Assembly (NCBI GenBank): GCA_964571255.1 | Contig: CAZNAA010000002.1 | Span: 28,746 to 92,745 of the forward strand | Direction: 5' to 3' | DNA from: an uncultured Gammaproteobacteria bacterium | Lineage (GTDB): Bacteria; Patescibacteriota; Microgenomatia; Levybacterales; UBA12049 | DNA: 64,000 bases | In this document: positions 26,922-53,314 of the stretch, one piece after another | Layout of the letters: the number at the start of each line of letters is the position of its first letter | How positions within the stretch are numbered: the stretch's first letter is position 1 | Translations under genes and position numbers: made by a program | The notes under the pieces: model-generated | Seen by the model: only the letters and a program-made list of their open reading frames with translations | Database searches by the model: none | What the model was told of the DNA's origin: nothing

Positions 26922-27812
26922 CTAATACCCGACGAACCAGGCATGATGCAATTTTTTCTTTGACGAACCAAACAAAAAGGAGAAAAGACGACTGGAATAA
27001 ATAAAGGTAAAGTGTTGAGGCCAGAGTTTAACAATGAGGATAATAATGAGGATAATCAAGGGTATTCCTACCCACAATAATCCCAATCCTGAGCCTATAA
27101 AAACTCCAATAAGTATCTCCCACATTTTCTGCAGAAACCGGAGAAATTGCTCCCATAACCCAAGCGCTTTTAAAGTAAGAAAACGTGAAGGGGCAACTGA
27201 TGGTTGCCCATTATAAGTCGCATCTGCATAGAGCTGATATACTCCAGCTGGCAAATCAGCAACCGTCACTTCATAATAGCCTTCTGTATCTGCAGTAACA
27301 GTAATACTTCGTCCTCCAACGTGAACGGTTACTTTTGCACCTGGCATAGAATAACCAAAAGCCAAAACGCTTGATCCCGCCGCAATTTCTGACCGTTGTA
27401 ATGCTATCGTAGGAGGGAGAAAGATATTGTCTTTTCGCATACTTGCAATCAGAGGTGGAAAAGTAAAGCAACTATATGATTCTCCTAAGTTGTGATAATC
27501 CTTTGCTTGAAGACAGAAACTTGTTAGTCCTCTATTGATTCGTACTTGAGAGATAGAAAATCTTCCATCAGCCCCTGCTACCGTCCCTCTGTAATATACC
27601 CCATCTATCAATAATCCAACGGAAGCATAGGGAGAAATAAAACCAGAAACAGATAAGAAAAATTCTCCCACCTCTGCACCCACTTTTATTTCTGCTTTTC
27701 CTTGAGGAACATAGGCATGGGTGACTGTTAACGAAAGAGAAAAGAAAAAGATACTCAAAAGAGTACAAAAAAGAACCAATGTAACTAGGGATACAGGCAG
27801 CTTGTTGAACAT
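26922..27812 (-). CDS. membrane-anchored secreted protein with prealbumin/CarboxypepD_reg-like beta domain
   Basis: 296 aa with a signal peptide and a C-terminal TM segment. VTVHVGGRSITVTADTEGYYEVTV is typical of Ig-like transthyretin-fold domains. Confidence 0.45.
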   Translation of the reverse strand: MFNKLPVSLVTLVLFCTLLSIFFFSLSLTVTHAYVPQGKAEIKVGAEVGEFFLSVSGFISPYASVGLLIDGVYYRGTVAGADGRFSISQVRINRGLTSFCLQAKDYHNLGESYSCFTFPPLIASMRKDNIFLPPTIALQRSEIAAGSSVLAFGYSMPGAKVTVHVGGRSITVTADTEGYYEVTVADLPAGVYQLYADATYNGQPSVAPSRFLTLKALGLWEQFLRFLQKMWEILIGVFIGSGLGLLWVGIPLIILIIILIVKLWPQHFTFIYSSRLFSFLFGSSKKKLHHAWFVGY

Positions 27813-28389
27813 ATAAGATATATTTGTATCTAGTCAAAAGGTGAATCCTTTTAAGATGACTCATTTTATTATACGATATCTTGTTATTTGTCACTATCTC
27901 CTTCTTTGAGAAAAAAGAAAGAGATAGATCGTTTTTTTCAGACACTATTTCTTAGATAGCACTTACTTATTTCTTGTGCTAAAGTTTTATTTTTATGACT
28001 CTCAAGATATTGACTGGTTTTGAGCTATTTTTCTTACAAAAGTGTTTTTTCTCTTTTATCATCTATTCTCTTTTTATCATTCAATACTTTATACGAACGA
28101 TCATGCCTGCGCTCTGTAAAAATCAAATACTATCCTTCTTTTTTCTTGTTTTTTTCAGGAATAATAAATATATCAAAATGGGTCATTTAGCCACGAGTTA
28201 GCCTATTACCAAAGTATTGACAGACCCTCTTTTCTCCCTCAAAATAAAGAGTGAACTTTGAAATTTCTGAAGAAAGTGAATAGCCAAGATAATCGGTATA
28301 ATCCGTATAATCTTGAAGCTAGAAAGGTTTCTCTTGTGAAAATCAGAAGACTGCCTTACTTCCCCCACTTTTCACAGAAAGGAGCAATC

Positions 28390-28527
28390 ATGAAAGGATA
28401 CAAAGTCGGCAAAGACGCCATCATTATTAAACAAGCAGATCAATTTGGATTCTCTAGAACCTTCTGGATTTTAAGTGCTGTTTCTTTTAGCTATTTTCTT
28501 AGCCAGAGTATTCTCCTGTTTATTTAA
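28390..28527 (+). CDS. small membrane protein (45 aa) upstream of the giant genes
   Basis: A strong SD (AAAGGAG, then 5 nt, then ATG at 28390) lies inside the longer ORF 28258-28527. A C-terminal TM helix is present. Confidence 0.35.
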   Translation: MKGYKVGKDAIIIKQADQFGFSRTFWILSAVSFSYFLSQSILLFI

Positions 28528-28637
28528 TTCCCTATGAAACACTTATTTTTCTCAAAGACCAAATTGTGCCTAAAAATAAATACATATATTAATAAACACT
28601 TCCAGGCAGGAAGATAAACAAAAATGCGAGAGATCGC

Positions 28638-31600
28638 ATGGAACACATAGAAAATTTTCAGTTATATTTAATTCAAAAAGGTTCTTCTCGTCCTACCGTA
28701 AAAAACTACATAGCTGATATTCGAAAGTTTATTAAGTTTCTAGAAACCACTAGCTCTTTCTCTCCAAGTGCTATCACCTCTGACTCAATTGCTGCCTATA
28801 AAACCCATCTTTCCTCCCTTCAGACCTCTCCTTCATCAATTGACAGATATCTCTCCAGTCTTCGTAAATTCACCAGTTTTTTGAGTGAAAAAAAACTTTT
28901 AGCCATTAATCCATTTCTGATTACTGAAGAAAAAGAGGTGGATATCTGGGAGTTGGGTGGATTTAAAAACGCGCTCCATACCCAGCACGTTTCTCCACTC
29001 ACCGTCAAAAATTACTTTCTAGACATCAAACAATTCCTCTCTTGGATAGAGAAAGTGGATACAAACATAACAAAAGATAACAATATCTCCCGCATCACAC
29101 CTGAAGTTGTAGAAACATATAAATCTCGCCTTCTTTCTCAAATGGAGCTCTCTCCTCTATCTGTAAATCGAAAACTTTCTTCCCTTCGAAAATACCTTTC
29201 CTATCTCTATGCAGGAGGACATCTAAATACGCTTCCTCAGATTAAAAACCAGCTAGAAGCAGAGCTTATAGATCAAAAAGGCTCAGAAGATATCATTGAA
29301 TTCCCGGTTATTACAGAAACCCCTCACACTCCTGAGGCCACACCGGTAGTTCCCTCTTCTTTTGCACCTATTCGTCTCACTAGGGCAAGTAAGAAGGGAC
29401 TCAATTACCTTTTTGATCTAGCGGTTATTACTCCTTTAGCCTCACTTTACAGTAAAGGACACATTCTTTTTAGAAAATCTCAAGGAAAAAATGGTTTATT
29501 TGAAGCAAAACAAATCAAAAAGTCTTTTGCTCTTTCCTCTTTTCTTCCAAGTAATAAGAAATTTGAAATATTCCATACCTTTATCACCAAAAATCCAAAA
29601 CAGCTGTTTAAAGGACAAATTTCCAATATCTCAAAGTCATTTTACGCTCCCCTGTCTCTCTCAACCACAGAGTTTCCCCTCCATAAAAAGATTTGGCATC
29701 ACCTACGTCATACTCGTCCAGCCTGGTATGACAAATATCACTCCTATCCACTCACTCACTACTTCCACTTTGCCGTACTCATGATTGTCATCACCATTGT
29801 GGGAACAGGCATGTACTCAGTTCTTTTTGACTCTGGAAAGAAAAACCCTGCACTCGCAGCACTGCCTACTGCCCCACCCCGTATTCTGTCCTTCCAAGGA
29901 AGGCTCACTGACTCTTCTGATAACCCCATTACGACGTACAAAAACGTCCGTTTTTCTATTTATGATGACAGCGCAGCAACTGGTTCAGGAAACCTGCTAT
30001 GGCAAGAGCTTCAAGGAGTAACGCCTGATGAAGATGGAGTTTTTTCCGTTCTAATGGGAAATACCGTTACAACGTGTGCCAACCCATTAACTGTGGCCAC
30101 GGGACCTTGTGCTATTCCCTCAACTCTTTTTACCGAGAACGCCACACTTTATTTGGGAGTAACCATTGAGAATGATAGTGAGCTAACACCTCGACAACAA
30201 GTCGCAACCGTTGCCTATGCAACTAATTCAGAAACACTCCAAGGACTTCCTCCATCAACAGCAGCAGGCGCCGCAACCAATAACGTTGTGCTGGCACTAG
30301 ACTCAAGTGGGAACTTGACCATTGGCGGAAGTGCTACCCCTACCTTCCAAGCCTCAGGAGGGCAGTTCACACTGTCAGGAACGGTACTTAAGATAACAAC
30401 AACAGCTGGAAGTAACAGTAATGTTCAAATCACTCCTGATGGACTTGGAAAAGTCGATATTCAAAAATCGATTATAAACTCTGGCGTTAATGGACCTTTG
30501 ACTACAGCTGCAGGCGCAGTCCAGGTTGATGACTTATTTGCTGTTAACGCAACCTCTTCTGGTCAATCTGCCTTCACACTCAATCAAGATGGAGCAGGAT
30601 CTCTTTTCTCTGCATCAGCATCTGGAGTCAATCGATTTGTCATTCGAAACGATGGAAATGTAGGCATTGGCTCAACAACACCAACAGCTACACTTGACGT
30701 CGTAGGAACAACGAAACTATCTAGTACCCTCACCCTTTCCTCACTCACTGCTAACGGTGGAGTTATTTACACTAACGGCTCAGGAGTTGTTGCCCAAACT
30801 GCAGTTGGATCTAGTGGCGAGTGTCTTCAATCAATTGGTGGAGGAACACCTATCTGGGGAAGCTGCACAGGAAGTAATGGGAGTAAATGGACTATTACGG
30901 CTGGTGCAATTCATCCTAATAACGTAACACTTGACGCACTTATTGGTGGAAACAGTACAGCGAGTGCTAAGTTTGGCTTTATTAACGTAGCAGGAGGAAC
31001 ACCTACTGCTACCATTTCTGGAAACCTTGCACTTGCTGTCCCAACAGGAGCAGATCCTGCTACTACCTACTCAGTTCTTAACGGAGGAACAATTAATTTT
31101 CGAACCAGTGTGGGTGGAGACAGCGGATTATCCAGCAGATTATACATTGCCAATGCAGGAAACGTTGGGATTAACTCTACATCTCCAACCAATGGCTATA
31201 TTCTTGATGCTGTAGGACGGGGAAGATTTTCAACAGGTTTATCTGTTGGAACAACAGCAACAACAAACACGGTAGAGATTGTGGGAACAGTAAATCAAGC
31301 TACTGGACAAGTAACGTTTGGAGGAAATGTTGATGCCACCTCAGGGGTTGACGTAACAGGAGCCTCACTAACTGTTGGTGGAGCTAACTTTTCTGTCACT
31401 ACTGCAGGCTTAGTCACCACAGCTGATGACGTGGCTATCAACGGAGGAGACATCACAACCAGTGGTACATCTTTCAATCTCCTTAACACAAATGCAACCT
31501 CTATTAACTTCGCCGGAGCTGCTACTGGTACTTTAGCTATTGGAAATACCTCTGGCACTACTAATCTTCTTGGTGCCAATGTTCGATTAGGAGATACCTC

Positions 31601-34600
31601 AAATGGAGTTAATATAACTAGCGCTGGTATTATTTCTGATTTGAATGGGAACGTTACGGTTCAGGATCATTTGGTTCCTCAAGCAGATGCTACGTACGAT
31701 TTAGGAACCACAGGACTCCAATGGAGAAATGCCTATGTATCTGGAAGTATTTGTTTTGCTGGAGGAACTGACTGTACCTCTTCCTTTTCTAGCTTAGGAG
31801 TTAACTACTGGAATATCACTTCAGGGACCCTGCAACCCAAAAATGCAACACTTGATCTTTTAATCGGAGGAACAGCAACAACGAGTGCTGATTTTGCCTT
31901 CATTAATGTTGATAGCGGAAATCCCACTGCTTCCATTGGTGCTAATTTAGCTATTGCTGTCCCAACTGGTGCTAATCCTGCAACCACGTATTCTGCTTTT
32001 AACGGAGGAACAATTAATTTTCGAACCAGTGTTGGTGGAGACAGCGGGGCTACGAGCAGGCTCTTTATTGCGAATAATGGAAATATTGGAATTGGAACAA
32101 CTACTCCTGGGCAAGAGTTAGATGTAAATGGCGATATTTTAGTGGGCGCTGGAAGTACTATTGATACTCGAGCTGCAGGTACTCTGACTATTGGTGGAAC
32201 TACCCAAACGGGATTAACAGTTGGAAGAACTGGCACTTCAACAGCAATTGCTGGTAACTCTTCTTCCTCAATTGACTTTGGTAACTTTGATGTAACGGCA
32301 GCAGGACTAGTGACAACAGCTGATGATGTGGCTATTAACGGAGGAGACTTAACAACCTCTGGTTCTTCTTTCAACCTTTTAAATGCTACAGCAACGAGTA
32401 TCAACTTCGCTGGTGGAGCAACAGGAACATTGGCTATTGGAAATACCTCTGGCACTACGAATCTTCTTGGTGCCAATGTTCGATTAGGAGATACCTCAAA
32501 TGGAGTTAATATAACTAGTGCTGGAATCATTACTGATTTAAATGGAAATGTGACGGTTCAAGACCATTTGGTTCCCCAAGCAGATAATACGTATGACCTT
32601 GGGACAACAACACTCCAGTGGAGAACTATTTATGCAGGAACGAGTATTTGTTTTGCTGGAGGAACTGATTGTACCTCCTCATTCTCGACTCTTGGGGTGA
32701 ATTACTGGAATCTCGCCTCAGGTACTCTTCAACCGAAGAACAGCACCCTTGATTTACTAGTTGGCGGAACAGCAACAACGAGTGCTAAGTTTGGCTTTAT
32801 TAACGTAAATAGCGGAACTCCAACCGCTACTATTTCTGGAAACCTTGCCCTTGCTGTCCCAACTGGAGCTGATCCTGCCACTACCTACTCTGCTTTTAAT
32901 GGAGGGTCAATTAATTTCAGAACCAGTGTTGGAGGAGATGCTGGGGCAACAAGTAGACTCTTTATTGCCAACCTTGGAAACGTTGGAATTGGCTCAACCA
33001 GTCCCACGCAAGCACTTGACGTTGTGGGAAACATTACTCTAAGCGGGACATCAGGACTTGCTCTTACGGGATCTGATGCTGATTTGACATTCTCAGGAAC
33101 AAGTAATCACGATATTACCGCTAGCAGTGGAACTCTTCGAATAGGAGCTGCCACTCTTACTGGAGCTCTGAATGCAAGTTCTAATACTATCACCAATGCC
33201 ACTTCCTATAACGGACTTGTTATTACTGCCAATACAGGAGTTATCACCACTGGAACATGGAATGGAACTGCAGTTGGTGCTACGTATGGAGGAACTGGAA
33301 TCAATACCAGTGGATCAACAGGAGTTCCCTATATCACAAGTGGAACCTGGAGTGTGGATACCAACGCCCTCACTGCGCCTCACGGAGGAACAGGACAAAC
33401 TATTTATGCAGTAGGAGATACCTTGTATGCCTCAAGTACTACTGCCCTATCAAAACTCACCATTGGCTCAACCGGACAAGCCTTAACTGTTTCTGGAGGC
33501 ATACCTGCCTGGGCAAATACCAATACTTCAGCATTTGGGTTGTGGGACCAAGCGAGTGGAGTGATTAACCCAAAAAACAGTACCCTTGATTTACTAGTTG
33601 GCGGTAGTGCGACAACGAGTGCTAAGTTTGGCCTTATTAATGTCAATAGTGGAACTCCAACGGCTACTATTTCTGGAAATCTTGCCATTGCTGTCCCAAC
33701 TGGATCAAACCCTGCAACCACCTACTCTGCTTTCAATGGAGGGTCAATTAACTTCAGGACTTCCGTTGGTGGAGATACTGGGGCAACGAGCAGACTATAT
33801 ATTGAAAATCTAGGTAACGTAGGAGTTGGAACAACGACACTTGATCGAAAAATGTCAGTAGCTGGAGACTTTATTGCTGGAGGAACCGGTACTGGACTCA
33901 TCATGACAGGAACAACGTTAACATCAGGCTTTTACCCAGGTGCTTCTGTTGTTGATCACGATATGATCATAAAAAACGGGACAATTAATGGAAATATCTT
34001 TTTTCAAACAGGAGCAGCTACTACGAGACTAGCAATTGATAATGTAGGCACTCTTACAGCTTCAGCCTATACAACAAATGGAGGACTTCTATATACCAAT
34101 GGCTCAGGTGTTTTTAGCCAAACTGCAGCAGGAAGCAGTGGTCAGTGTCTCCAATCCAATGGAGGTGGAGCTCCTACCTGGATCACCTGTGCAACTGGCA
34201 GTAAATGGACAATTACAGCAGGAGGAATTCATCCTAATAATGCAACACTTGATCTCTTTATCGGAGGAACTGCAACTGCTTCATCAAAATTTGCTTTTAT
34301 TAATGTCAATAGTGGAACTCCAACTTTTAGAGCCTATAACTCAACCAGTGCTCAATATCTCTCTCTTAATCATGATGGGACAGATGGAAATATTACCGCC
34401 TCAACCGGAACCATTAACATTGGACAAGGTGGAGGAACGCTTTACTTAGAAACAGATATCAAAAACGATACGACCAATTATGCAGGATTTGTTCAGATCA
34501 GTGATAAATTATTGGTTCAAGGACCAACTGAGGCGAGTGCTAATTCTCTGGCTATTTTAGATAACACAACAGCAGGTGCTGATATTTTAACTGCCTCAAG

Positions 34601-37600
34601 TGCGGGAACTACTCGGTTTGTCCTCACTGGTGTTGGAAACGTTGGGATTGGGACTAATCTTCCCCGAGCAAGCTTAGAAGTTGTGGGAGATGCGAGTGCA
34701 TCAGGATCACTCGTTTTGAGAAACGCCTCAAGTAATCAGATTGAATCCATGAATGGCTCTCCCCTTTCTTTTTGGACTTCAGTGGGTGGAGATACAGGAC
34801 TCACTGAGAGAATGAGAATAACGAGTAGTGGAAATATTGGGATTAACTCTACCTCTCCAACCACAGGCTATATTCTTGATGCTGTAGGACGGGGAAGATT
34901 TTCAACTGGTTTATCTGTTGGAACAACAGCGACAACGAATACCTTTGAGCTTGTTGGCACCATGAATCAAGCCAGTGGTCAAGTCACCTTTGGTGGGAAT
35001 GTAGATGCCACGAGTGGATTAGATATAACAGGATCCTCTCTTACTGTTGGAGGATCTAACTTTTCTGTCACTACTTCTGGTGCTGTTACTGCAGAAGACA
35101 TCGCAGTGAATGGTGGAGATATCACAACTGATGAGACTACATTTAATTTAGTGAATGCTACAGCAACGAGTATCAACTTCGCTGGTGGAGCAACAGGAAC
35201 ATTAGCCATTGGAAACACTTCTGGCACTACTAATCTTCTTGGTGCTAACATCCGATTAGGATCCAGTAGTACGGGGATTAATATCACCAGTGCTGGTATC
35301 ATCAATGACATTGATGGAAATGTAGTGGTTCAAGATCATGTAGTTCCTCAAGCCAATAATACGTATGATTTAGGAACAGCCAGCTTGCAATGGAAAGATT
35401 ATTATGGCATTGGTACTGCATATTCAGCTGATTTTAAAGATACCAATAATACTGCCTATTACCTAGATCCTGCAAGTACCACAGATTCACTTGTCATCAA
35501 TGGACAAGTACGAATTGGAGGAAGTTCAACTGGTGCTGGAGGAGTAACTCTTGAAGATAACGAACAAGAAGGAGTCCCAGGAAGTATAAAAAGTGGTGCT
35601 GGAAGAAACAATCTTTTGGCAACTGCAGGATATATCATGTCTCCATTTGGAGGATTTGGAAGATACGAAAACTACGTGAGATATTCTGAACAATTTGACA
35701 ACCAAGGATTTTGGGCTCGAAGCGGATTAAGTGTTGTTCCAGATGCCGTGCAAGGACCAAATAGTCACGATACTGCTCTAGTAACCGCTGATGTGATTAG
35801 TGATGATGGGACACCTAACGGAACACTCACTCAATCATATCCTGGGACCATAACAGGAAGTACTGTTTGGACTTTTTCTGTTTGGCTTCGAAACGTACGA
35901 GCAGCTGAATCAAGTTATCAAGCTGCCACGGGGAATGTCATTTTAAGCTTAGTAAGTAATGGAGCTGGAGCTAGTGCTGCAACGACAACGATTGCTGTCC
36001 CTTCAACTTCCTGGAAAAGATATAGTGTTACCTATACTGTCAATGGAACATCCCCCACTGCACTCATTGCTCAAATTGACTACCAAGGGGGAGCTAGTAC
36101 AGAAGTTGCAGTCTGGGGAGCACAACTTGAAAAACAAGCAGCACCAAGTGTCTATGCACAAACAACTGATAAATTTATTCCAACCGGCCGAGGCTTAGTA
36201 GCAACAGGAGTTGGCCCACATCTTCTCCAAACAGGCAACGGAGGGACAGCTACGCCTTCGGCTAGTGGCGTATTTGTAGCAGCTTCAGGGGGAGTATACC
36301 AAACAAGTCCAAACAAGAATATTTTTGAACTCTATAATAGTGATGCAAGTGCAACTAACAATACCTCAAGTATTGGCTTTTTGGCTAACAGAGCGGGAAA
36401 TACTGCTACTCAAATTGCTTCCGTTTCTGCAATTATGACTGATGCCACTGCTACTGCCTATACTGGAGCACTCTCCTTCTCGACCATGGCGAGTGCAGGA
36501 ACTGGACCAACAGAAAAACTCCGAATTACTGGAGATGGAAATGTGGGGATAGGTACTACATCAATTGGATCTAAACTCACTGTTGTCGATAACTCGACAA
36601 CATACGCTCAAAACATAGCCCAAAATAACACCTCTGGACATGGTTTATATCTTTGGACCAATAACAATTCAACTTTTGATTCAATCCTAGTCCAAAATAG
36701 CGCTTCACAAAACATACTTAACCTAAAATCAAATGGCAATTTAGGAATTGGAACAAATAGTCCGGATGAAAAACTCCATATCTCAGGATCTAGTGCTGGT
36801 GATGGAGCTCATATTGGTAATATTTATACTGGAGTCTGGGATAATAATACCGATTATGGAGTATTTGTCCATAATTCTATAAAAGCAACGTCTGGTAGCT
36901 ATGCCCTACTCCAACAATCCAACGGTGCCACTTTTCTTAACGCAGCCTCAGGCCAAGCTATTAAGTTTAGGATTAACAACTCTGATTATATGGCTCTTGA
37001 CTCTGGTGGCAATGTTGGCATTGGCACTACAGGATCTTCTTACGGAAAATTACAGGTTTCAGGCGGTGATATTGTGCTTGACGGAGCTAATACTAACGGA
37101 GGTGAATTATTTGTATCAGCAAATGGCAACGGTATTATAGGAGCATCAGTTAGAGCAAACTATGGAGATTTACTTCTTGGCTATAATCTCAGAGGTCAAG
37201 CTGGTAATGATAACTACTATACAAACTCAACAGGATCTGCAGGCTATGGAGGTATCGAGGTTGCCTACCAAGGAAGGATTAGTTTTTATGGTGCTAATGT
37301 TTCAACCACTGCAGGATCTACTGTAACACCAACAGAACGTATGCGCATTGATACGGCAGGCAATGTTGGCATAGGGACTACCACAACAAGTTCATATAAA
37401 CTTACTGTTAATGGAGGTATCCAATCACTCGACTATGGTGCTGCAGGCACGGCCAATATTATCATCGGTGATGACTCGTTTTTTACTGATATCGATACGA
37501 GCAATGCCGTGGGACTATATGGTACTAGCGATAATACAAAAGGTTGTCTAAGACTAGGCAATACCTCTGGACAGGAACTTTGTGGTAGTAGCGGAAATAT

Positions 37601-39770: not shown

Positions 39771-39840
39771 AAAAACCCGTATTGAAATCTATGTTTTTAG
39801 CTATAAAAACGATATACTATAGATATACATTTCTGCCCAA

Positions 39841-45800: not shown

Positions 45801-48800
45801 TGGAGATATTACGCTCTATAACCTAGCAACGAGTGGAACTGGAACTACCACCTTTTCTGGAAGTGGAACAAATACAGTAAGTAACAATGTAACCGTCGGA
45901 GCAGGAACCACTCTTGCCATTAACTCCAGTATTTCTATCACAGGAAGTTTTGCCAATACAACAACTGGGATTATCACAACCACCAGTGGAAATCCAACAG
46001 TAACCGTTTCTGGAGCAACGATTGGCGGAGGAAGTGGAGCTATTACCTTTTATGATCTCACTAAAGCAGGAGGTGGAACCACTACGTTTTCTGGTGCTGG
46101 AACGAACACCGTAAACAACAATTTATCTATATCAAATGGTACCTTTACTCAATCAGATAGCCTTACGGTGACAAACGATATTAGCGTTGCAACAGGAGCA
46201 ACGTATAACAATAATGCAACACTTGCTGTCAATGGAGGAGACTTCACAACAACAAGTACTGGTGTCATCAATACGACCAGCGGTACCCCTACTCTCACCA
46301 TTTCAGGAACAGGGAGTTTGGGTGGAGGAAATGGAAATATTACCCTTTATAATCTGACAACTACTGGATCAGGAACAACTACTTTTTCAGGAGGCGGAAC
46401 TAACACGATAAATAATAATGTCTCAGTTGGGGCAGGAACTACTTTAAATATTAACTCTACAATTGGCATTACAGGAAATCTGACGAACACTTCAACTGGA
46501 ATAATTGGCACAACGAGTGGAACTCCAACGGTAACAGTTTCAGGAACAACGATTGGTGGAGGAAGTGGCGCTATAACTATTTATACGCTTGCCAAAGCTA
46601 CCGCATCAACTACAACTTTTTCAGGAGGCGGAACTAACACTCTTTCACAAAATCTCACAGTTTCTGCAGGGACACTCACTATCTCAAATGATTTGAGTAT
46701 TGGAAATGACGTTTCTGTTGCAACGAGTAGTACGTTAAATCTCAATGGAAACACTTCAATTGGCGGAGGAGATGCAACAACTGCTGGCACTGGGATTATT
46801 AGTACGACAAGTGGTACTCCTACTCTTTCAGTTTCAGGTACAGGAACTGTTGGAGGTGGCGGAGCTGTTAGCGCCTATAACTTAACAATTTCTGGAAGTC
46901 AAACGATCTCTTCAGCCACAACGGTTTCAAATGATTTGAACATTAATGGAACCATGTCTGGTTCTTCAACAGTAACCGTGAATGGCAATTTAGTAGGAAT
47001 TGGAGCCGTTTCTCACGGAGGAACCGTTGAGCATCGAATAGGAAGTGATAAAAACTTTGGAGCAACGAGTGGAAGTGGAACATGGGCATTTACTACGCTC
47101 AAATTTACCAACTCAAGTGGTTCAACCAAAACCATTACCACCCAAACTGGCGGAGCAGGAGGAGTGAGTGCAGCAACTGTTCTTCAAGTTGGAGAAACCG
47201 ATGATTCAGCTGGGATTAACTTAGATGCAGGGAACAAAACATGGACTCTTTCTGGAACAAGTGGAGCTCCATTAAGTATTGAGGATGGAAGTATTGCAGC
47301 AGCGACCTCAACATTTGTGTTTAGCGGAAATAACGGTGGTGGGAATACAACGATTAATGACATTACCTATTACCGGTTAACGGTAAATAACGGCTCAGAA
47401 ACGTTTGTTCTAGCAGCCTCCCCCCTTCTTGTTACCAATACGTTAACAATCAGCGCAGGCACTCTTTCTGTCAGTACAAACTCCGTAACTGTTGGCTCCT
47501 CAAGTGTATCGAATTCTGGGAGTATTTTAAATTCAGGAACCTATTCCCAATCTGCTGGAGGAACAACAACGGTGAAATCCTCTGCCGGGGGAAGCAGCAC
47601 AATTGGAGGAAGCGGAACAACTACTTTTTATAATTTAAGTATTGCTCCAGATGCTGCTTCTGCTCCAACAATTACTCTTGGATCTGCAGGAAGTCAAACA
47701 ATCACTGTTTCCAATAATCTAGGAATTGGAGATGGATCAAACTCAGTAATAGTAACAGCGAACACAAATAACCCTGCGCTTGATGTGAATGGGAATTTTA
47801 CGATTAATACTAGTGCTACTTTTACTGCTCCCCCATCAGCTAGTTTTACTATTGCTGGGAATATGACAAATGATGGAACTTTTACTCATAATAATGGAAC
47901 CGTTACTCTGGATACGACAACAACTGCTACGCTTACAGGAAGTGGCTCTACTGCTATTACGTTTTATAACTTAACTTCAACTACAGCAACCAAAACAATC
48001 CTTTTTACTAGTACAAAAACTTTTAAAACTGATGGCCTCGTTACCTTAACAGGAAGTAGTGGGAATAATATTACAGTTGATGCAACAAGCAACGGGTCCC
48101 AATGGTTAATTAACCATCAAGGAACAGAGAATATTACCTATACCTCTGTCCAAGATTCAGGCTGTGATGGAGCAAGTACTACTATTACGTTGGGAACAAC
48201 GAATACGAATAATGGCAATAATTCCTCCTGTTGGGTCTTTACGATGGATGTAACGGGAAATGTGTATACAGATGAAGGAAGTAGTGCGTATGACTGTTCC
48301 TCAGATAATTTAACCATTCATATCTCAGTCAATGGAGCAGCCAGCACAACAACTACCTGCACCTTAAATACTGGAGCCTTTAGCTTTTCAGGAGTCACTA
48401 AACCGTCAAATGGAACTCCTATTGTTCTGTATATTGATAGTGGAGAAACACCAAAAGCAACAACTGTTACTCTTGCCGATTCCAGTTTAACTGGAGTAAA
48501 AATCTATCAAAACCATGTGAACTTAACTCATGAAAATGCAGGACCTATTACCAATACCAACCTTTCAACAGCTGATAATGGAGATAGCGGAATACGATAC
48601 AACGTCAGTAGCGGAAATGTCACGTTTGATACAGATATGGAGGCTCATGTCCTTGGAAGTAAAACGTATACACCTGGAGGAAATGTGACTACACAAGGAA
48701 GCGCTGGAGATTTTCACCTTGCCTCAAGTAGTACTGCCACTCTTGGAGGAATAACAACACTTTCTGGTGACGTGCAGGTTGATACAGGAGCCACGCTTAC

Positions 48801-50604
48801 TATCAACGCTGATACAGCTGTTTCTGGAGGAGCAGTAGCAACAAGCGGGACAGGAAGTGTTACGACCAGCAGTGGAACACCTACTCTGACCATTAGTGGA
48901 ACAGGAAATATTGGGGGTGGAGGAAGTGTCACCGCTTATAATTTGACAGTATCAGGTACTCAGACACTTCAATCAAATCTGATTGCAAATAATGATATTA
49001 GTGTTTCAAACGGAGCTTCCCTTGCCCTTAACGGAAAAGATACGACAGTGACTGGTGGCGACTTTACTACGACAGGAACTGGTGCTATTACTTGTTCTGG
49101 ATGTAGTGCTGGAACAACTACTATTAACGGAGGAGCAGCAAGTGGACTGGGAGGAGGAGGAGCAGTTACTGTCTATAATCTCACTATTGGCGGAACAGTA
49201 CCTCTTCTTTCTACCCTTACTGCGCTTAATACCTTAACCGTGAATGGAACATTCTCCGGCTCTTCCAATGCAACCGTGAATGGAAGTATTGCAGGAACTG
49301 GGACAATCATTTTTTCTGGAGGAACAGTTGATCAACGAGTGGGAGCTTCTCAAAACTTTGGAACAACGAGTGGGAGTACTAACTGGACTTTTTCGACACT
49401 TATTTTCTCAAACTCCAGCGGAACGAGCAAAACTGTTACTACCCAAACTGGAGGAAGTGGAACAGTCACTGCCTCAACCCTTCTCCAAATTGGCAAAGGA
49501 GGAGACAGTGCAGCCACAGTACTTGACGCTGGAAATAGAAATTGGATTGTTCAAGGAACAAGTGGTACTCCTCTAACTCTCCCTCAAGGAAGTGTTACGG
49601 CCAACACCTCAACAGTTAGTTATACAGGAAATAATACTGGTGGAAATACCACTATTGCAACTATCACCTACTACTCCCTCCTCGTAAATAACAGTTCAGA
49701 AACCTATACCCCGTCCACCACTCTTGCTATTGATAATGGATTAACCGTTACATCAGGAACGCTTGATCTTGGCACGAATGATACAACCATTGGATCAACT
49801 GGCGTATCAAACTCAGGAGGAGTCTCTGTTCTTGGTACCCTTACGCAATCTTCCAGTGCAACCACTACTATTCGAACCTCTGCTAGCGGAGCTAGCACTG
49901 TTGGAGGAAGTGGTAGTATCACCTTTTACAACCTTTCTTTGGCTCCTGCTGCTAATAGTGGAGTAATCACACTAGGATCTGCCACCAGTCAAACGATTAC
50001 TGTTTCAGGTACACTTACTATTGGAAACGGCAGTAACTCTGTGACTGTGACTGCTAATACGAATAACCCCACCATTGATGTCAATGGCAGCCTGACAATC
50101 AATACAAGTGGAACCTTGGTTGCACCACCTTCCTCTATCCTCTCCATTGCTGCAAATATGACAAATGACGGAACCTTTACAGCCAATGGAGGAACTGTTC
50201 GAATTGACGGTTCAGGAACATCAGTTCTCAATGGCTCCTCAAGTCCTGCTATCATCTTTGCCAACTTTCTCTCAAGTACAGCAGGAAAGACTATTCAATT
50301 CACCGCATCCAAAATTTTCCGAATAACAGGCTCACTTACCATTACTGGAGCTACAGGAAATACAATCGCTATTCAATCAACAAGCGGGACACAATGGCTT
50401 ATCGATCACCAAGGGACAGAAAGCGTAACGAACGCAACCATTACCAACTCAGGCTGTGATGGAGCCAGTACAGATATCACCCTTGGGTTTAGTAATTTTA
50501 ATGGAGGAAACAATGGAGTGTGTTGGGTCTTTACTGCTGGAGGAGCGATACAGTCACGCGTGAAAGGAACAACTCGAGTAGGAGGAAATGCTCGGATCCA
50601 ATAA
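39841..50604 (+). CDS. giant (3587 aa) secreted surface protein with beta-helix-like repeats
   Basis: Has a signal/TM N-terminus (LLAGLLALSLLLGPLIPFF). Repeated TNNGTLTLTG...FDNTGG...DEATDDSTFTCGNTPGGTFRIDKT units are present. About seven ~90-aa GTG...VYNL...GTQT repeats follow. A ~130-aa Cys-containing module (QWLI[ND]HQGTE...SGCDG...CW.F) occurs three times. Confidence 0.85.
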   Translation: MKYLNYLSLLRHILRTKKVLLAGLLALSLLLGPLIPFFSFHNSSKQETPKYFASELTMRSKKTLFTPVEKPTFKIGIGKPVTQDGKVLEKISGTNVFISEVHAQETSLPELQIKASRTIRETDIVQMVANRTAPDEIEIKVADAVSFRPGKYRMSITSGNRNIEQDFTWGVLAVNTNKSVYSPGETAKIGMAVLDDIGRTKCMTGAYAEFNKGKVWLTITDPLGKKTEHSSENGLVIGSPECEEHSVTNEADFQTTYKTTTPGIYQIDLIGENQNGKKSIADYFEVKSDQSVIVERISLPTRIFPASDYSASISVTTKGPFKGQIIETTPASFIITCDGCQVLGENSLNDASEPADRKATHTIVWDVDWKTGGSHTLSYTINPPNVSPEFFLLGPLTLSQGKNILFKEVRQWQIASDALITWNGNGASVNWSVAGNWSTGAAPTTAANVVLDGVASPNGNANSTINNATVGAVTDITINGYTGTVTQGAAIATSGTSGITVTSGTLTGATQAITLTDGSLTVNGGVFTTTTGAVSIQLNLTFSSGTLTNNASGINFTDNTSADDSTLSCSSTLSGTWRINKTSGGDFALGSGCTVSMSENVTSSVGLLTNDGTLTITGASTVLNIVDNNIDNNSSLTVDSSGARVTVERNFDNTGGTLTNNGTIDFPDSTNADDSTLTCGNTPGGTFRINKAQGSDFTLSSSCTITATENVTSSLGRLTNNGTLTLDNGTFVFGQTDTTLSVDNNSSLTLDTDAIITLQRNFDSTGGSITNNGNINWISDEAGATDSPDLTCNSSLGGSGSYNLNFAAAADFTLSSSCTVTMSESLAGVAPMGLLTNNGVLTLAGSGASFDFNSTSPTLLLDNNNTLSLGSGATITIQRNFDNTGGSFSNSGTVIFDADEATDDSTFTCGNTPGGTFRIDKTLASDFTLSSGCTISASENVTSSLEVLTNNGNLTLTGTSSFVFTTTSTNLQIDNNGTMTIDSSVTVSLHRNFDNTGGTLTNSGTVVFNSDEATDDSTFTCGNTPGGTFRIDKTTGGTTFTLSSGCTASFTESATVAMEQITNNGTMTLTGGSSSWPLTTTSVTDQVVNTGTLNITGGAALSLHRSFNDTGTVSNSGGSISFLSDEATVDDTTLTCGGSSDFGDVTINKTSSGSTFTISSNCVFNDFIYTSSSAEFSNPGSARTLSVTGNFTMDDIQNLGGANLTVEFSSTGTQTINKSSTGLFQSKFSVNKTAGGNSVGLATALTVTTETCNIVEGTFETNGFTFTCAGGFTVQDGGNLQMHGSETPTSPTLNSGSTVTYEGNGDGVADTRTMKAYVYHHLTVNSSVGTADTFQPPNAFTGANDINGNLTITDGTFDVISGTNYGVDVVGSFSIATDGIFLAQAGTLKIGDDFTNNGTFTAGTGTVELNTATTATLNGSGSPAVTFNNFTVTTAAKTVQFTASKTFRINGLLTITGTAGNEVVINSTSGTQWLINHQGTENVTYANVTNSGCDGTSTTITIDATSINNGNNGTCWDFPILNITVSGNIYSDEGSSAYDCSANNITVYTSVNGAANDTPGTCTLNTGAFSITATKPTAAAQPIVIFIDSGESIKATTVTLTADATSNITGLKLYVDHLVLTHEDSGPMTNAKLATGDNADAGIRYSVASSNLTVESGIELFVYNSKTFTPGGTVTTQGSLGDFQLGTSATATLGTATNTISNDILIGTSATLNVNTDTIVAGGDITATGTLNTTSGTPTITMRGTGSISGAGSKTVYTLLIGDGTTATTTLSGTLTANNDVTVGTGSTFNQNASLNISGGDFTTTTTGIVNTTSGTGTVTITGTGNVGAGSGGSFTVYNLAANGTQTLISDIVTTNNISIATGGSLALASKNVTVSGGTVSTAGTGAITCSACSAGTVTISGTGNIGGGGTVTVYNLQINGTQTLASALTVSNDAVVGTGGILDLGSQNMTVTGGDFTNTTTGIIRCNSCSAGTLTMPATGNLGSGSGDITLYNLATSGTGTTTFSGSGTNTVSNNVTVGAGTTLAINSSISITGSFANTTTGIITTTSGNPTVTVSGATIGGGSGAITFYDLTKAGGGTTTFSGAGTNTVNNNLSISNGTFTQSDSLTVTNDISVATGATYNNNATLAVNGGDFTTTSTGVINTTSGTPTLTISGTGSLGGGNGNITLYNLTTTGSGTTTFSGGGTNTINNNVSVGAGTTLNINSTIGITGNLTNTSTGIIGTTSGTPTVTVSGTTIGGGSGAITIYTLAKATASTTTFSGGGTNTLSQNLTVSAGTLTISNDLSIGNDVSVATSSTLNLNGNTSIGGGDATTAGTGIISTTSGTPTLSVSGTGTVGGGGAVSAYNLTISGSQTISSATTVSNDLNINGTMSGSSTVTVNGNLVGIGAVSHGGTVEHRIGSDKNFGATSGSGTWAFTTLKFTNSSGSTKTITTQTGGAGGVSAATVLQVGETDDSAGINLDAGNKTWTLSGTSGAPLSIEDGSIAAATSTFVFSGNNGGGNTTINDITYYRLTVNNGSETFVLAASPLLVTNTLTISAGTLSVSTNSVTVGSSSVSNSGSILNSGTYSQSAGGTTTVKSSAGGSSTIGGSGTTTFYNLSIAPDAASAPTITLGSAGSQTITVSNNLGIGDGSNSVIVTANTNNPALDVNGNFTINTSATFTAPPSASFTIAGNMTNDGTFTHNNGTVTLDTTTTATLTGSGSTAITFYNLTSTTATKTILFTSTKTFKTDGLVTLTGSSGNNITVDATSNGSQWLINHQGTENITYTSVQDSGCDGASTTITLGTTNTNNGNNSSCWVFTMDVTGNVYTDEGSSAYDCSSDNLTIHISVNGAASTTTTCTLNTGAFSFSGVTKPSNGTPIVLYIDSGETPKATTVTLADSSLTGVKIYQNHVNLTHENAGPITNTNLSTADNGDSGIRYNVSSGNVTFDTDMEAHVLGSKTYTPGGNVTTQGSAGDFHLASSSTATLGGITTLSGDVQVDTGATLTINADTAVSGGAVATSGTGSVTTSSGTPTLTISGTGNIGGGGSVTAYNLTVSGTQTLQSNLIANNDISVSNGASLALNGKDTTVTGGDFTTTGTGAITCSGCSAGTTTINGGAASGLGGGGAVTVYNLTIGGTVPLLSTLTALNTLTVNGTFSGSSNATVNGSIAGTGTIIFSGGTVDQRVGASQNFGTTSGSTNWTFSTLIFSNSSGTSKTVTTQTGGSGTVTASTLLQIGKGGDSAATVLDAGNRNWIVQGTSGTPLTLPQGSVTANTSTVSYTGNNTGGNTTIATITYYSLLVNNSSETYTPSTTLAIDNGLTVTSGTLDLGTNDTTIGSTGVSNSGGVSVLGTLTQSSSATTTIRTSASGASTVGGSGSITFYNLSLAPAANSGVITLGSATSQTITVSGTLTIGNGSNSVTVTANTNNPTIDVNGSLTINTSGTLVAPPSSILSIAANMTNDGTFTANGGTVRIDGSGTSVLNGSSSPAIIFANFLSSTAGKTIQFTASKIFRITGSLTITGATGNTIAIQSTSGTQWLIDHQGTESVTNATITNSGCDGASTDITLGFSNFNGGNNGVCWVFTAGGAIQSRVKGTTRVGGNARIQ
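44900..46900 (+). repeat. tandem ~270-nt coding repeats inside giant protein 2
   Basis: Peptide units of the form ...TSGTPT(V/L)T(V/I)SGTG..GGG....YNL...GT.T.. recur about seven times. Confidence 0.7.
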
Positions 50605-50657
50605 GAGGTTATCCTTGACTTTATACATTTAGCTTTGTTACAGTTTATGGATACTCT

Positions 50658-52775
50658 ATGACTGATTCAAAAAAAGAACTCCTTTCCTATTTAGAAAACA
50701 TGTCTCTTCTTTTCTTAGGAATTCTCTTTCTAGCTTTTCCTTTGATTTTCTCTCAACAAACGACTGAGACCTTTGTCCTTCCAAAACAAATCCTTCTGGG
50801 AAGTACTGTTTTAGTAAGCTTTTTGTTTTTTGGAGTCCGAATGCTTCTCGAAGGACGAGTGAGACTCAAAACAACTCCGTTTGACCTACCTCTTTTTTTC
50901 ATGACCGTAACGTTTGCCCTTTCTTCTTATTTATCACTCAATAAGTTTGATGCACTTATCGCCTATATCCCCTTCCTTTTTGGCATTTTAGTTTACTTTA
51001 TCGTAGTTAACGTTGTAACAGGAAGGAATGCAACACTTTTTCTTCTGGGCTCACTCGTTACAGGGGCAGCACTCAGTAGCGTACTCACTATCCTTGCTTC
51101 TCTCAAAGTCACTTTTTTCCCTTTCACCCAAGTACTTGCCCAAACACAAACTACCATGGGATCTCTATTGGATCAAAGCATGTATCTAGCAGTCGTTGCT
51201 ACAATTGCCGGATATGTTGCGTATCCTCTGTTTGAAGGGAGAAAAGCAACTCAGGAGCAAAAGCCTCTTTTTGCTGCGTTTGCAGCCATGGGAGTTTTGA
51301 TTGTAATTGGCCTTTTGGTAACTCTATTTCTCCTCTTCAAGCAAAAACCAGCTCTTCTTCCTTTCTCAACAGGATTTCAAACTGCCTTTGCTGCTATCTC
51401 ACAAGATGGTGGACGTCAACTTATGAGTTTTCTATTTGGCAGTGGATTTGGAACTTTTGTGACCGTCTTTACTAAATTCAAACAAGCGACGTATAATGCG
51501 TTTCCCACTCTTTGGTCAATAACCTTTTTTAGATCAAGTAGTTTTATACTAGAACTTTTAGCTACAACAGGATTTCTTGGCTTCTTAAGCTTTATGCTCC
51601 TTCTCTATCGATTCATTCGCACTCGAGTTTTTTATCTGCCACTTATCTTAGTTTTTGCAGCAGCGTTTCTTCTTCCCTTCTCCTATAACTCCCAAATGCT
51701 TCTTTTCTTTGTCCTTGCAGTATTTGCCATCCTTCATAGTAGAGATAACGAAAGACTCTATCAGAACTTGGAATTCTATTTTGTGGCTCTTAAAAGAGGC
51801 TTAGTCACCACAGAAGATGCTCCAATAAGACAATATGAAGAAAAAGGAGCGAAGATTCTTCCTATTATCCTCTTTGTTATCCTTGCTGGACTTTTTGGAG
51901 GACTTGCATATATCTCCACTCGATTTGTGATCTCAGACGTGTTATTTAAAAAGTCCTTTGTAGCAGCTTCGAAAAATGACGGACTTACTACCTACAGACT
52001 CCAAGAAAGTGCTCTCAAAACCTTTTTGTACAAAGATACATATCACTCCATCTTTGCTCAAACAAATCTAGCACTTGCTAACTCAGTTGCAAATTCTCAA
52101 CCAAAAAACTCCTCTCCTAGCGCGCAGACAAGTCAACAGATATTAGGATTTATTCAGCAATCAATTAATGCAGGAAAGTCAGCAACAGCAATTTCTCCTC
52201 TTACTGCATCCAACTGGAATAACCTATCAAGCATTTATAGATCTCTTATAGGTTTTGGACAAAATGCAGAAGTCTTTGCCAGAGATGCGAATCTGCAAGC
52301 CATTCAACTTGACTCAACTAACCCACAACAATATATCAATCTAGGTGGTATCTACTACCAACTGCAACAATGGGATTTGGCTGAGCAAGCATTTATTCGA
52401 GCAATTGATTTAAAATCTGACTATGCTAATGCATACTATAACCTTGGTCATACCATGGAAAACAAAGGGGATTTAAGTGGCGCTTTGAGACAATACCAAG
52501 TAGTTGAGCAACTCGTTAAAGCCCAAAAGGAGGATATAACAAAGATTCAAGAAGAGATAAAAGTCCTTCAAGCAAAAATAGCCAAACAAACTCCCCCTCA
52601 GTCACAAGCTGAAGACCAAACAGGAACGGATGATCTTTCCATCAATCAACCAGAAACCACTCTTCCTGAGCAAAAAGAGAAAGCACCAATTGACGGACCT
52701 GAAGTAAAATTAACCCCTACCCCAACACCAAGTACTCCTCCTTCAAAAACCCCATCACCTTCTCTAAGTAACTAA
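50658..52775 (+). CDS. polytopic membrane protein (O-antigen-ligase/Wzy_C-like) with C-terminal TPR repeats and Pro/Thr tail
   Basis: 705 aa. About 12 TM helices in the first ~430 aa. TPR-like repeats follow (YINLGGIYYQLQQWDLAEQAFIRAIDLKSDYANAYYNLGHTMENKGDLSGA). The protein ends TPTPTPSTPPSKTPSPSLSN. Confidence 0.5.
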   Translation: MTDSKKELLSYLENMSLLFLGILFLAFPLIFSQQTTETFVLPKQILLGSTVLVSFLFFGVRMLLEGRVRLKTTPFDLPLFFMTVTFALSSYLSLNKFDALIAYIPFLFGILVYFIVVNVVTGRNATLFLLGSLVTGAALSSVLTILASLKVTFFPFTQVLAQTQTTMGSLLDQSMYLAVVATIAGYVAYPLFEGRKATQEQKPLFAAFAAMGVLIVIGLLVTLFLLFKQKPALLPFSTGFQTAFAAISQDGGRQLMSFLFGSGFGTFVTVFTKFKQATYNAFPTLWSITFFRSSSFILELLATTGFLGFLSFMLLLYRFIRTRVFYLPLILVFAAAFLLPFSYNSQMLLFFVLAVFAILHSRDNERLYQNLEFYFVALKRGLVTTEDAPIRQYEEKGAKILPIILFVILAGLFGGLAYISTRFVISDVLFKKSFVAASKNDGLTTYRLQESALKTFLYKDTYHSIFAQTNLALANSVANSQPKNSSPSAQTSQQILGFIQQSINAGKSATAISPLTASNWNNLSSIYRSLIGFGQNAEVFARDANLQAIQLDSTNPQQYINLGGIYYQLQQWDLAEQAFIRAIDLKSDYANAYYNLGHTMENKGDLSGALRQYQVVEQLVKAQKEDITKIQEEIKVLQAKIAKQTPPQSQAEDQTGTDDLSINQPETTLPEQKEKAPIDGPEVKLTPTPTPSTPPSKTPSPSLSN

Positions 52776-53306: not shown

Positions 53307-53314
53307 GATCTATT

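Follow-up and report, generated by a model that had tools for sequence, protein, structure and literature searches.

A probable cell-surface-fibre locus with a giant tail-fibre-like protein in a Levybacteria-type chromosome

What are two giant genes, lying one after the other on the same strand and encoding 3710 and 3587 amino acids (aa), doing in the chromosome of an ultra-small, Levybacteria-type bacterium? They are found in a 64,000-nt stretch of contig CAZNAA010000002.1 (assembly GCA_964571255.1), which is called the window here and within which all coordinates are given. The 3710-aa giant is named G1 and the 3587-aa giant G2, while L-numbers stand for the ortholog loci that were compared, with L007 as the sister species. 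A large part of bacterial diversity belongs to the Patescibacteria (the candidate phyla radiation, CPR). These bacteria live attached to other cells, by molecules that are mostly unknown. With reasonable but not full confidence, we read the region as a conserved cell-surface-fibre locus of a Levybacteria-type chromosome, consisting of G1, a partner protein with 11 transmembrane (TM) helices and a tetratricopeptide repeat (TPR) domain, a lineage-specific G2 and an adjoining pilus operon. From the lifestyle and the architecture, we infer that the locus serves to attach the bacterium to a host or prey cell.

In the reading that we propose, the locus follows immediately after a pilus operon, which would be a divergent one of the Pam type. 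The N-terminal ~370 residues of G1 would stay in the cytoplasm with two core-binding domains, and one TM helix would anchor the protein. Folding could be nucleated by an intramolecular chaperone (IMC) of the phi29 gp12 type (Peptidase_G2) near the C-terminus, which could then cut itself off at A3082/D3083. The length of the shaft would be set by old in-frame duplications of modules, with a difference of about three-fold between species. G2 is predicted to be a disulfide-rich beta-solenoid giant with an N-terminal signal anchor, Cys-pair repeats, three Cys modules and a basic tail, and only in this lineage would it have come to lie between G1 and the partner gene that usually follows it. The product of this partner gene, a 705-aa membrane protein, would act on the exported fibre.

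A preliminary description, made from the sequence alone, had listed four open reading frames (ORFs) here, and ORF calling returned the same four, with two separate giants on one strand. It had also considered that the giants might be a single mis-split gene, and this was looked at and ruled out. The domain at the C-terminus of G1 is also terminal in the 48 complete orthologs, the 70-bp gap after it contains stops, the two giants are in different frames, and G2 begins with its own family-typical signal anchor. G1, its parts and the 705-aa protein are located as follows, with the basis of each assignment in brackets.

28638..39770, + strand: G1, 3710 aa, predicted membrane-anchored tail-fibre-like protein of a 'SAM-TM-fibre-IMC' family (ORF, profiles, orthologs)
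28647..29237, + strand: G1 tandem integrase N-terminal SAM-like (core-binding) domains, aa 4-85 and ~108-200 (Pfam)
29751..29807, + strand: sole predicted TM helix of G1, aa 372-390 (hydropathy, family alignment)
29850..30623, + strand: conserved first ectodomain of G1 (family alignments)
30606..35405, + strand: putative G1 shaft with diverged in-frame repeats (chunk BLAST, DNA self-BLAST)
37302..37634, + strand: phage tail-fibre-family segment of G1, aa 2889-2999 (PHROG phrog_9942)
37866..38027, + strand: Peptidase_G2-type IMC core of G1 (PF11962)
37884-37898, + strand: putative autocleavage motif of G1, D3083-F-G-E-Y (alignment to phi29 gp12)
38940..39767, + strand: conserved C-terminal domain of G1, aa 3435-3710, ending ...FNWWIVN (orthologs)
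50658..52775, + strand: 705-aa membrane protein with TPR domain (homologs, AlphaFold2 (AF2) model, Pfam)

The N-terminal region of G1 looks, at first sight, like part of a recombinase. Two stretches of it are matched by PF02899, PF13495 and PF13102 (E=4e-20). The XerC/XerD models TIGR02224/TIGR02225 reached only 73/66 bits against cut-offs of 335/330 and aligned at model positions 3-94 only, the PHROG integrase match was restricted to aa 10-94, and no recombinase catalytic domain was found anywhere in G1 with Pfam or NCBIfam. Therefore, the G1 family is not a recombinase family. Hydropathy gave one TM helix and no signal peptide, which suggests a cytoplasmic N-terminus with the remainder, ~3,300 residues, outside the cell. 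Besides the pair of SAM-like domains and the TM helix, the family alignment contains a conserved linker, a conserved basic juxtamembrane motif in front of the helix (HKK.WHH.R.TRP.WY.KYHSY) and a first ectodomain that is highly conserved. The consensus of this ectodomain (PPRILSFQGRLTD..DNPIT...LLWQE...ELTPRQ.VATVAYATN.ETLQG...) has a mean column identity of 58%.

When the first 520 residues of G1 were used as a query, 51 proteins were retrieved that were 34-53% identical over the full query. Nearly all were partial, labelled 'site-specific integrase' and derived from Patescibacteria, Levybacteria or Microgenomates. A scan with one genome per species found relatives in at least 298 genomes, the informative titles being Levybacteria or Levyibacteriota. 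G1 is a member of a large, unrecognised protein family. Hundreds of giant-fibre genes are misannotated as 'site-specific integrase / recombinase XerD, partial' owing to their N-terminal SAM-like domains, and the records of the family are mostly truncated at contig ends. One metagenome-assembled genome (MAG), CAYWEP01, has two G1-family genes on different contigs (L013 and L067), showing that paralogs exist. Many MAG records with loci that are clearly of the Levybacteria type (L009, L011, L013 and others) are titled 'uncultured Gammaproteobacteria bacterium', which is probably a placeholder taxonomy from bulk submission.

The C-terminal part of G1 resembles phage tail fibres. The PHROG 'tail fiber protein' phrog_9942 matched aa 2889-2999 (E=2.8e-8), and PF11962 matched aa 3077-3130 with 32.8 bits (cut-off 25). 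A profile built from the last 760 residues of 35 family members matched the phi29 pre-neck appendage fragment 3gqh (chain A) at E=2.8e-5, and its 'DLAEYY' aligned with residues 1-6 of 3gqh_A (DFAEYF). We take this fragment to be the autocleaved auto-chaperone of the phi29 tailspike. The aligned column contains D3083-FGEY in G1 and D.AE in 34/48 orthologs, the form D[FY]AEY being found among them. Among eight orthologs tested, Peptidase_S74 (PF13884) was detected in five, with E-values down to 5e-18, and PF11962 in one. The two chaperone types appear as alternatives at an equivalent position, Peptidase_S74 in L013, L034, L048, L061 and L062 and Peptidase_G2 in L036 and G1. An IMC swap of this type within one family amounts to module swapping of the phage tail-fibre kind.

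These matches point to a phage-tail-fibre-like shaft formed by the ~3,300 exported residues, which would probably be trimeric, and the chaperone may cut itself off at A3082/D3083. Repeats are stronger in G1 than in G2, and the best pair of G1, aa 917-1100 and 1216-1399, is 86% identical in protein and 78.5% in DNA (at most 78.5% over 735 bp). Serine plus threonine make up 24% and 31% of the two giants, and no Cys stands without a close partner (8 pairs in G1, 17 in G2). Such Ser/Thr richness and full pairing of Cys are typical of extracellular proteins, and the earlier reading of the giants as extracellular, repeat-rich and adhesin-like was upheld. Segment-wise scans with Pfam, NCBIfam and PHROGs left >95% of both giants without a match, and PDB sequence searches with full-length G1 and G2 gave nothing significant.

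The ortholog survey covered 80 loci, of which 48 contained complete orthologs and 29 ran off contig or flank ends. The complete orthologs range from 1,271 to 3,603 aa with a bimodal distribution (36 short, 12 long), and nine further ones exceed the 10-kb flank, eight of them being >3,800 aa. The two length modes are thus ~1.3-1.8 kaa and 2.2 to >3.8 kaa. The domain at aa 3435-3710 of G1 is terminal in 48/48 complete orthologs, at 33-55% identity.

The 705-aa protein downstream belongs to a family of at least 859 homologs of ~720 aa, which are ~50% identical and annotated only as TPR proteins. An AF2 model based on a multiple sequence alignment (pLDDT 80.2, pTM 0.79) has ~11 TM helices followed by a TPR array, which Pfam places at aa ~440-643 and which is followed by a Pro/Thr/Ser-rich tail. 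The positive-inside rule would place the TPR domain and the most conserved loops on the outside. The homolog starts ≤300 bp past the stop of the G1 ortholog in 22/41 evaluable loci and within 3 kb in 28/41. Because of this adjacency across loci, we take the 705-aa protein to be the conserved partner of G1, with G2 wedged between the two here. Most likely, it acts on the exported fibre, in its assembly, its anchoring or the glycosylation of its Ser/Thr-rich shaft, glycosylation being the weakest of these suggestions.

The preliminary description had called this protein 'Wzy_C-like/TPR'. The TPR half of the name stands and the Wzy_C half, judged by sequence and profile comparison, does not, as aa 1-447 gave no match to PF04932 at E<=10. 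None of 14 family members matched PF04932 at that threshold, with E. coli WaaL as the positive control at 3.6e-13. Homology to WaaL was likewise rejected, since hhalign of the family profile returned 0.3% probability with the wrong region aligned. The family profile found no ligase, and nothing else, among PDB sequences, and Foldseek of the model against the PDB returned TPR matches only.

G2 is the second giant and belongs to another family, with the parts listed below.

39841..50604, + strand: G2, 3587 aa, second giant, of another family than G1 (ORF, family termini)
39877..39951, + strand: N-terminal hydrophobic segment of G2, aa 13-37 (hydropathy)
41440..43419, + strand: about six 113-aa tandem repeats of G2, aa 534-1190 (chunk BLAST)
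44032..44406, + strand: Cys module copy 1, G2 aa 1398-1522 (motif, alignment)
47875..48252, + strand: Cys module copy 2, G2 aa 2679-2804 (motif, alignment)
50170..50544, + strand: Cys module copy 3, G2 aa 3444-3568 (motif, alignment)
50545..50601, + strand: basic C-terminal tail of G2, ...AIQSRVKGTTRVGGNARIQ (tail type of module-bearing proteins)

Chunked BLAST found no similarity between G1 and G2 at E<=1e-5, and the idea that they are paralogs was rejected, as switching off composition correction yielded only a 22%-identity alignment. Among the 80 loci, no sequence of the G2 N-terminus or the Cys module was present between the G1 ortholog and the TPR gene. The 3' end of G2 (last 210 bp) is present in the sister species L007. 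Because these 80 intervals lack G2-like sequence, G2 is read from the comparison as a lineage-specific insertion between G1 and the TPR gene that is shared with the sister species.

The motif QWLI[ND]HQGTE...SGCDG...CW.F, noticed earlier as occurring three times, was found exactly three times in G2 (aa 1472, 2754 and 3518). Over a 125-aa alignment the module copies share 51-58% protein identity, with the Cys pair and the Trp residues invariant. Self-comparison confirmed that the modules are embedded in larger duplicated blocks, aa 2343-2800 matching aa 3109-3565 (54-61% identical) and aa 1319-1800 matching aa 2596-3095 (47-59%), but these blocks measure ~460-500 aa and not ~270 aa as previously described. 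The tandem repeats have offsets of 111-116 aa, each with a Cys pair 24-26 residues apart, and further repeats of 77-177 aa are located at aa 1700-2390. The signal peptide previously assigned to G2 is confirmed as a hydrophobic segment at aa 13-37, for which anchor and cleaved peptide are indistinguishable by hydropathy.

No Pfam or NCBIfam model matches the Cys module. An exhaustive profile search found it in 1,738 representative clusters, 135 of them at E<=1e-30; a word-index search badly underestimated it, with 9 matches. The proteins carrying it are nearly all 1,000-7,400 aa long and have up to 15 copies, and the few with a named source are from Omnitrophota and Peribacter, together with Peregrinibacteria giants. 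In 66 of the top 147 proteins, no more than 60 aa separate the final module from the C-terminus. After the last module, 14 of the 147 end in a basic tail ([KR][IV].G..[KR][IVF].), as G2 does, 39 in a Gly-rich '...GGGGGSP' sequence and 16 in an ending which is of the Pam-pilin type by motif (...AG.Y..V.Y..TP.F) and which G2 does not have. The fragment P0006 aligns with the whole of the Pam pilin C model NF058581 (E=7e-4). The basic-tail proteins have the N-terminal signal-anchor design of G2, and G2 is the longest among them. The three recurrent endings look like alternative surface-mounting signals.

Upstream of G1, the leader region contains the following features.

28217..28245, + strand: sigma-70-like promoter, TTGACA / 17 nt / CAAAAT (consensus scan)
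28288..28323, + strand: 36-nt cis-element GATAATCGGTATAATCCGTATAATCTTGAAGCTAGA (locus comparison)
28258..28527, + strand: small ORF read as 89 aa with a TTG start (ORF call)
28390..28527, + strand: probable 45-aa small tail-anchored membrane protein (peptide conservation, Shine-Dalgarno)

The preliminary description of this region as AT-rich and promoter-bearing was borne out, as 27813-28637 has 31.6% GC against 41% in the window and the promoter is present. Two to three GTATAATCN units, repeated directly every 9 nt, make up the element together with a CTYGARGCTARA box (also given as CTCGAGGCTAAA box), and the consensus of the element is RATAAT-NNG-TATAAT-CNG-TATAAT-YTYGARGCTARA. It occurs once in the window, with 0.01 chance matches expected. 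Across loci it is found upstream of the G1 ortholog in 73/77, and it is essentially absent elsewhere in 1.37 Mb. A promoter of the form TTGAC[AT]-N16-19-TAnnnT stands upstream of the element in 68/74 loci, the -10 ending 14-60 nt upstream. A structured RNA was rejected, since RNAalifold gave 0 pairs across 42 sequences and Rfam found nothing beyond tRNAs. The lack of a consensus RNA structure fits an operator-like site. The genes of the locus are probably co-transcribed from the sigma-70-like promoter, followed by this family-specific element. At the head of the pam-like cluster upstream, a 211-aa protein (21669-22304) has a weak sigma-70 region-4/ECF-like match (E ~0.003-0.008) and is a candidate dedicated regulator of surface-structure genes.

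For the small ORF, a membrane protein remains probable, as first described, and its length has to be revised. An 89-aa protein with a DN.YNPYNLEA motif was rejected, because this motif is TATAAT-N3-TATAAT read in frame and the ORFs around the element are 13-130 aa long with no conserved frame among loci. What is conserved where the N-terminal half of the ORF overlaps the element is thus DNA and not peptide. The gene product is more likely a 45-aa protein from ATG 28390, which has an AAAGGAG Shine-Dalgarno sequence 7 nt before it. The peptide MKGYKVGKD...FWILSAVSFSYFLSQSILLFI follows the consensus MKG[YF]KVG.D...FW.L.A...S..LSQ..LLF in L009, L031, L073 and L083, which are long-form loci.

The features flanking the fibre genes are given below.

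22310..26517, + strand: pam-like pilus gene cluster upstream of G1 (NCBIfam, hydropathy, ortholog loci)
26922..27812, - strand: 296-aa protein, divergent from G1 (weak Pfam matches, hydropathy)
52818..53063, + strand: 81-aa ORF, N-terminal 59 aa conserved in L007 (tblastn, 64% identity, E=4e-20)
53034..53596, - strand: YafQ-family toxin (53034-53306) and RelB-family antitoxin (53315-53596), small variable cassette (Pfam)
53660..53731, - strand: tRNA-Ala(ggc), conserved in the sister species (ARAGORN, Rfam)

The pam-like cluster consists of a PamT-like gene of 249 aa (22310-23059), a 336-aa gene, a 470-aa Pam-pilin-C-like protein (24101-25513) and a 333-aa protein (25516-26517), and homologs are located upstream of G1 orthologs in most loci. 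The NCBIfam matches are sub-threshold: NF058579 PamT with 56 bits (cut-off 240) and NF058581 Pam_pilin_C with 37.6 and 26.2 (cut-off 55). By hydropathy, the 333-aa protein has a signal sequence and a C-terminal TM helix, a chaperone-like topology. The 296-aa protein has a signal sequence, an Ig-like (CarboxypepD_reg/Big) domain from weak Pfam matches and a C-terminal TM helix, and its homologs lie beside 9/12 long-form and 0/36 short-form G1 orthologs. Homologs of the 470-aa pilin-like protein are likewise present only at long-form loci, which a clade split or a functional coupling could explain. The C-terminus of this protein (...AGAYQAYVTYVATPTF) we take to resemble the C-termini of Gram-positive WxL-domain proteins. 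The 333-aa protein has a weak WxLIP_PGBD match, which together with that presumed WxL-like end hints at a link between Pam pili and WxL loci. Genes for DNA transfer and DNA uptake that are typical of Patescibacteria are also found near the fibre locus, namely a VirD4/TrwB-like coupling ATPase with DUF8128 downstream (57043-59199, - strand) and ComEC/ComEA upstream (16915-18767, - strand).

The repeats had been thought to reflect recent duplication and likely antigenic or length variation, and neither proposal held up. The Cys-module copies are 64-70% identical in DNA, and codon position 3 takes 100/159, 30/42 and 64/103 of the mismatches between repeat copies, all of which are in frame. Therefore, the duplications are old and the protein has been under purifying selection. 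TRF detected no tandem arrays, the longest perfect repeat is 28 bp and repeat pairs reach at most 88.5% DNA identity. As the copies are old and diverged and form no tandem array, it is unlikely that the assembly collapsed or expanded them, or that recombination drives variation in phase or length. Variation by a diversity-generating retroelement (DGR) was rejected too, with no Avd homolog, no ORF with a reverse transcriptase motif (motif scan only) and no A bias in six repeat pairs. One Levybacteria MAG (L005) has a bAvd/23S_rRNA_IVP-like 137-aa gene (8783-9196) directly upstream of its G1 ortholog; the window contains no counterpart of it and no DGR signature.

Could the locus be a genomic island instead, carrying recently duplicated, antigenically or length-variable adhesins between a promoter and a toxin-antitoxin (TA)/tRNA integration site? 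The TA pair and tRNA-Ala at the 3' end, seen in the preliminary description, are there: the toxin (PF15738, 37.7 bits, cut-off 30) and the antitoxin (PF04221, 35.5 bits, cut-off 22.4) form an adjacent YafQ/RelB(DinJ) pair. Both giants contain internal repeats, G2 is missing from the same position in 80 other genomes, and between the window and L007 the ~700-bp TA cassette is an indel, 52956-53656 being replaced in L007 by an unrelated 450 bp (2550-2999). However, the GC content of the giants is 0.40-0.46 against 0.41 in the window, and the gene order is conserved both in the flanks and inside the locus: other Levybacteria have ComEC and ComEA, LeuRS, the pam-like genes, G1, the TPR gene and in many cases LysM/M23 in the same succession, and the part from LeuRS onwards recurs in dozens of their genomes. 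Both for G1 and for the TPR protein, the best homologs carry the names Levybacteria or Patescibacteria. L007 (84% DNA identity) is collinear over the last 210 bp of G2, the TPR gene, tRNA-Ala, LysM/M23 and Rho. Matching GC and conserved synteny place the locus in the core chromosome, and judged from this comparison the TA cassette alone is mobile-like. There is no recombinase and no integrase catalytic domain, and the repeat copies, at 64-79% DNA identity with third-position divergence, are as diverged as described above. An island is therefore improbable. Still less probable is that the giants or their repeats were produced by mis-assembly of repeat-rich reads, although giant repeat genes commonly break assemblies, as the 29/80 orthologs that run off ends illustrate. 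A 17,198-bp Logan contig (run SRR8893623) is 100% identical to 42913-60110, so an independent assembly confirms this part, including all three Cys modules and the downstream genes; 28.6-42.9 kb is outside that contig. Its start at 42913 falls within the G2 repeat pair of highest similarity (131 bp, 88.5% identical), and an exact-product look-up found no independent record of G1. Against an artefact, the repeats are diverged and in frame, and both ORFs are uninterrupted with family-typical N- and C-termini. An origin as a prophage remnant, with G1 as a degraded integrase/tail-fibre fusion in a locus of phage origin, would account for the integrase SAM-like domains, the Peptidase_G2 IMC and the PHROG integrase and tail-fibre matches. 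It is hard to reconcile with an intact architecture of two SAM-like domains, TM helix, ectodomain, IMC and C-terminal domain that is kept, at 33-55% identity and in an unchanged place on the chromosome, by at least 298 species genomes, with divergence under purifying selection and no other phage genes nearby, and we give it hardly any weight.

Two further alternatives concern what the proteins do. The 705-aa protein could glycosylate the fibres with a lipid-linked donor, as an enzyme of the O-antigen-ligase/Wzy type or the GT-C type that has diverged strongly. It is polytopic, its most conserved residues are in extracytoplasmic loops with an acidic residue just after TM1, and the extracytoplasmic TPR domain could bind a substrate; the giants are 24-31% Ser+Thr and the linkage to G1 is tight. 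As no similarity to Wzy_C, WaaL or any GT-C family was found in Pfam, NCBIfam or PDB sequences, and the hhalign comparison with WaaL failed as described, this is a possible but doubtful role. G1, in turn, could be a membrane-tethered DNA-binding sensor or regulator similar to ToxR/CadC, with its core-binding domains binding the tandem GTATAATC repeats of its own leader. The SAM-like domains are predicted to be cytoplasmic, are strongly conserved and lack a catalytic domain, and a direct-repeat element at the transcript start in 73/77 loci with no RNA structure has the pattern of a protein-binding site. Binding of DNA or of the element by these domains is, however, conjecture, the TATAAT-like repeats could be promoter elements or the site of another regulator such as the 211-aa sigma-like protein, and the cytoplasmic region offers no PDB-level similarity to guide residue analysis. 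We regard a regulatory G1 as rather unlikely. Equally speculative is the wider idea that the G1 family acts as a transmembrane signalling fibre, in which contact or tension on the fibre would feed back on transcription of the attachment locus through binding of the element. If this were true, a domesticated recombinase DNA-binding module would serve as a membrane-tethered regulator under a host-contacting shaft derived from phage tail fibres.

Several points weigh against the cell-surface-fibre locus that we favour over these alternatives. The trimerisation, autocleavage and membrane topology of G1 are predictions from sequence. In the putative cleavage motif, the Ala of phi29 and most orthologs is replaced by Gly in G1, and the motif lies 628 aa from the C-terminus (506-683 aa in orthologs), whereas phage IMCs stand at the extreme C-terminus. 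Neither the cytoplasmic region of G1 nor the profile of its first ectodomain had a significant PDB sequence match, and a single-sequence AF2 model of the C-terminal Cys block reached a pLDDT of 50. The scores of the pam-like genes fall below the curated NCBIfam cut-offs. No TPR gene was within reach in 13/41 evaluable loci, and as the membrane domain of the 705-aa protein matches nothing, the role given to this protein is guesswork based on position and topology.

If the cell-surface-fibre reading is right, the G1 family would represent widespread, unrecognised surface proteins that reuse a phage tail-fibre folding device on a membrane-anchored cellular fibre, and that come with a dedicated 11-TM/TPR partner, a family-specific regulatory element and a pilus operon next door. 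The unannotated Cys module, with its three endings in >1,700 giant-protein clusters across CPR and Omnitrophota, points to a common strategy by which giant adhesins would be fixed to the cell surface. The annotation of hundreds of genomes as containing a 'site-specific integrase' could be corrected, and length-variable candidates for host specificity become identifiable for co-culture work. The role of the DNA-binding-type domains in the cytoplasmic part of G1 also becomes a concrete question.

Among known systems, phi29 gp12 and other phage tail fibres and tailspikes come closest to G1. G1 and its orthologs share with them a G2-type or S74-type IMC (PF11962, PF13884), a D[FY][AG]EY motif aligned to the start of the crystallised C-terminal fragment of gp12, a tail-fibre PHROG, just upstream in G1, and a long, repeat-rich shaft rich in Ser/Thr/Gly/Asn. 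Unlike phage fibres, G1 is chromosomal and predicted to be membrane-anchored, with a cytoplasmic domain and a TM helix; it is 2-5 times longer, is not part of a virion and has ~450-500 more conserved residues after the IMC core. With XerC/XerD and phage integrases, G1 shares two SAM-like core-binding domains (Pfam, NCBIfam, PHROGs), but it has no catalytic domain, scores ~70 bits against ~330 and continues, after these domains, into a TM helix and a giant ectodomain. The 705-aa protein resembles O-antigen-ligase-like enzymes with TPR domains, and GT-C enzymes (TMTC/PMT-type) with TPR domains, in its many helices, outward conserved loops and extracytoplasmic TPR array, but it shows no detectable sequence or profile similarity to them.

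A 'tail fibre-like protein' has been reported to co-localise consistently with pam operons in CPR genomes, including those of Microgenomatia (Troman et al., bioRxiv 10.64898/2026.03.03.709456). G1 likewise lies next to PamT-like and Pam-pilin-like genes, a comparison made through that phrase alone, and the 333-aa and 296-aa proteins are similar to Pam chaperones and anchor in having a signal sequence and a C-terminal TM helix. The integrase-SAM/TM architecture, IMC, partner protein and cis-element of the G1 locus are not described in that preprint. Finally, G1 and G2 can be compared with giant repeat adhesins such as those of the Bap/RTX type and with the giant proteins of Omnitrophota (West-Roberts et al., bioRxiv 10.1101/2023.11.21.568195). 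Common to them are a very large size, an extracellular location and a construction from repeats, in ultra-small bacteria with an (epi)symbiotic or predatory way of life. Ig, cadherin or RTX repeats are absent from both giants. The Omnitrophota giants share the Cys module with G2, but have a SecA or multi-TM architecture, whereas G1 and G2 would each be held by a single N-terminal anchor.

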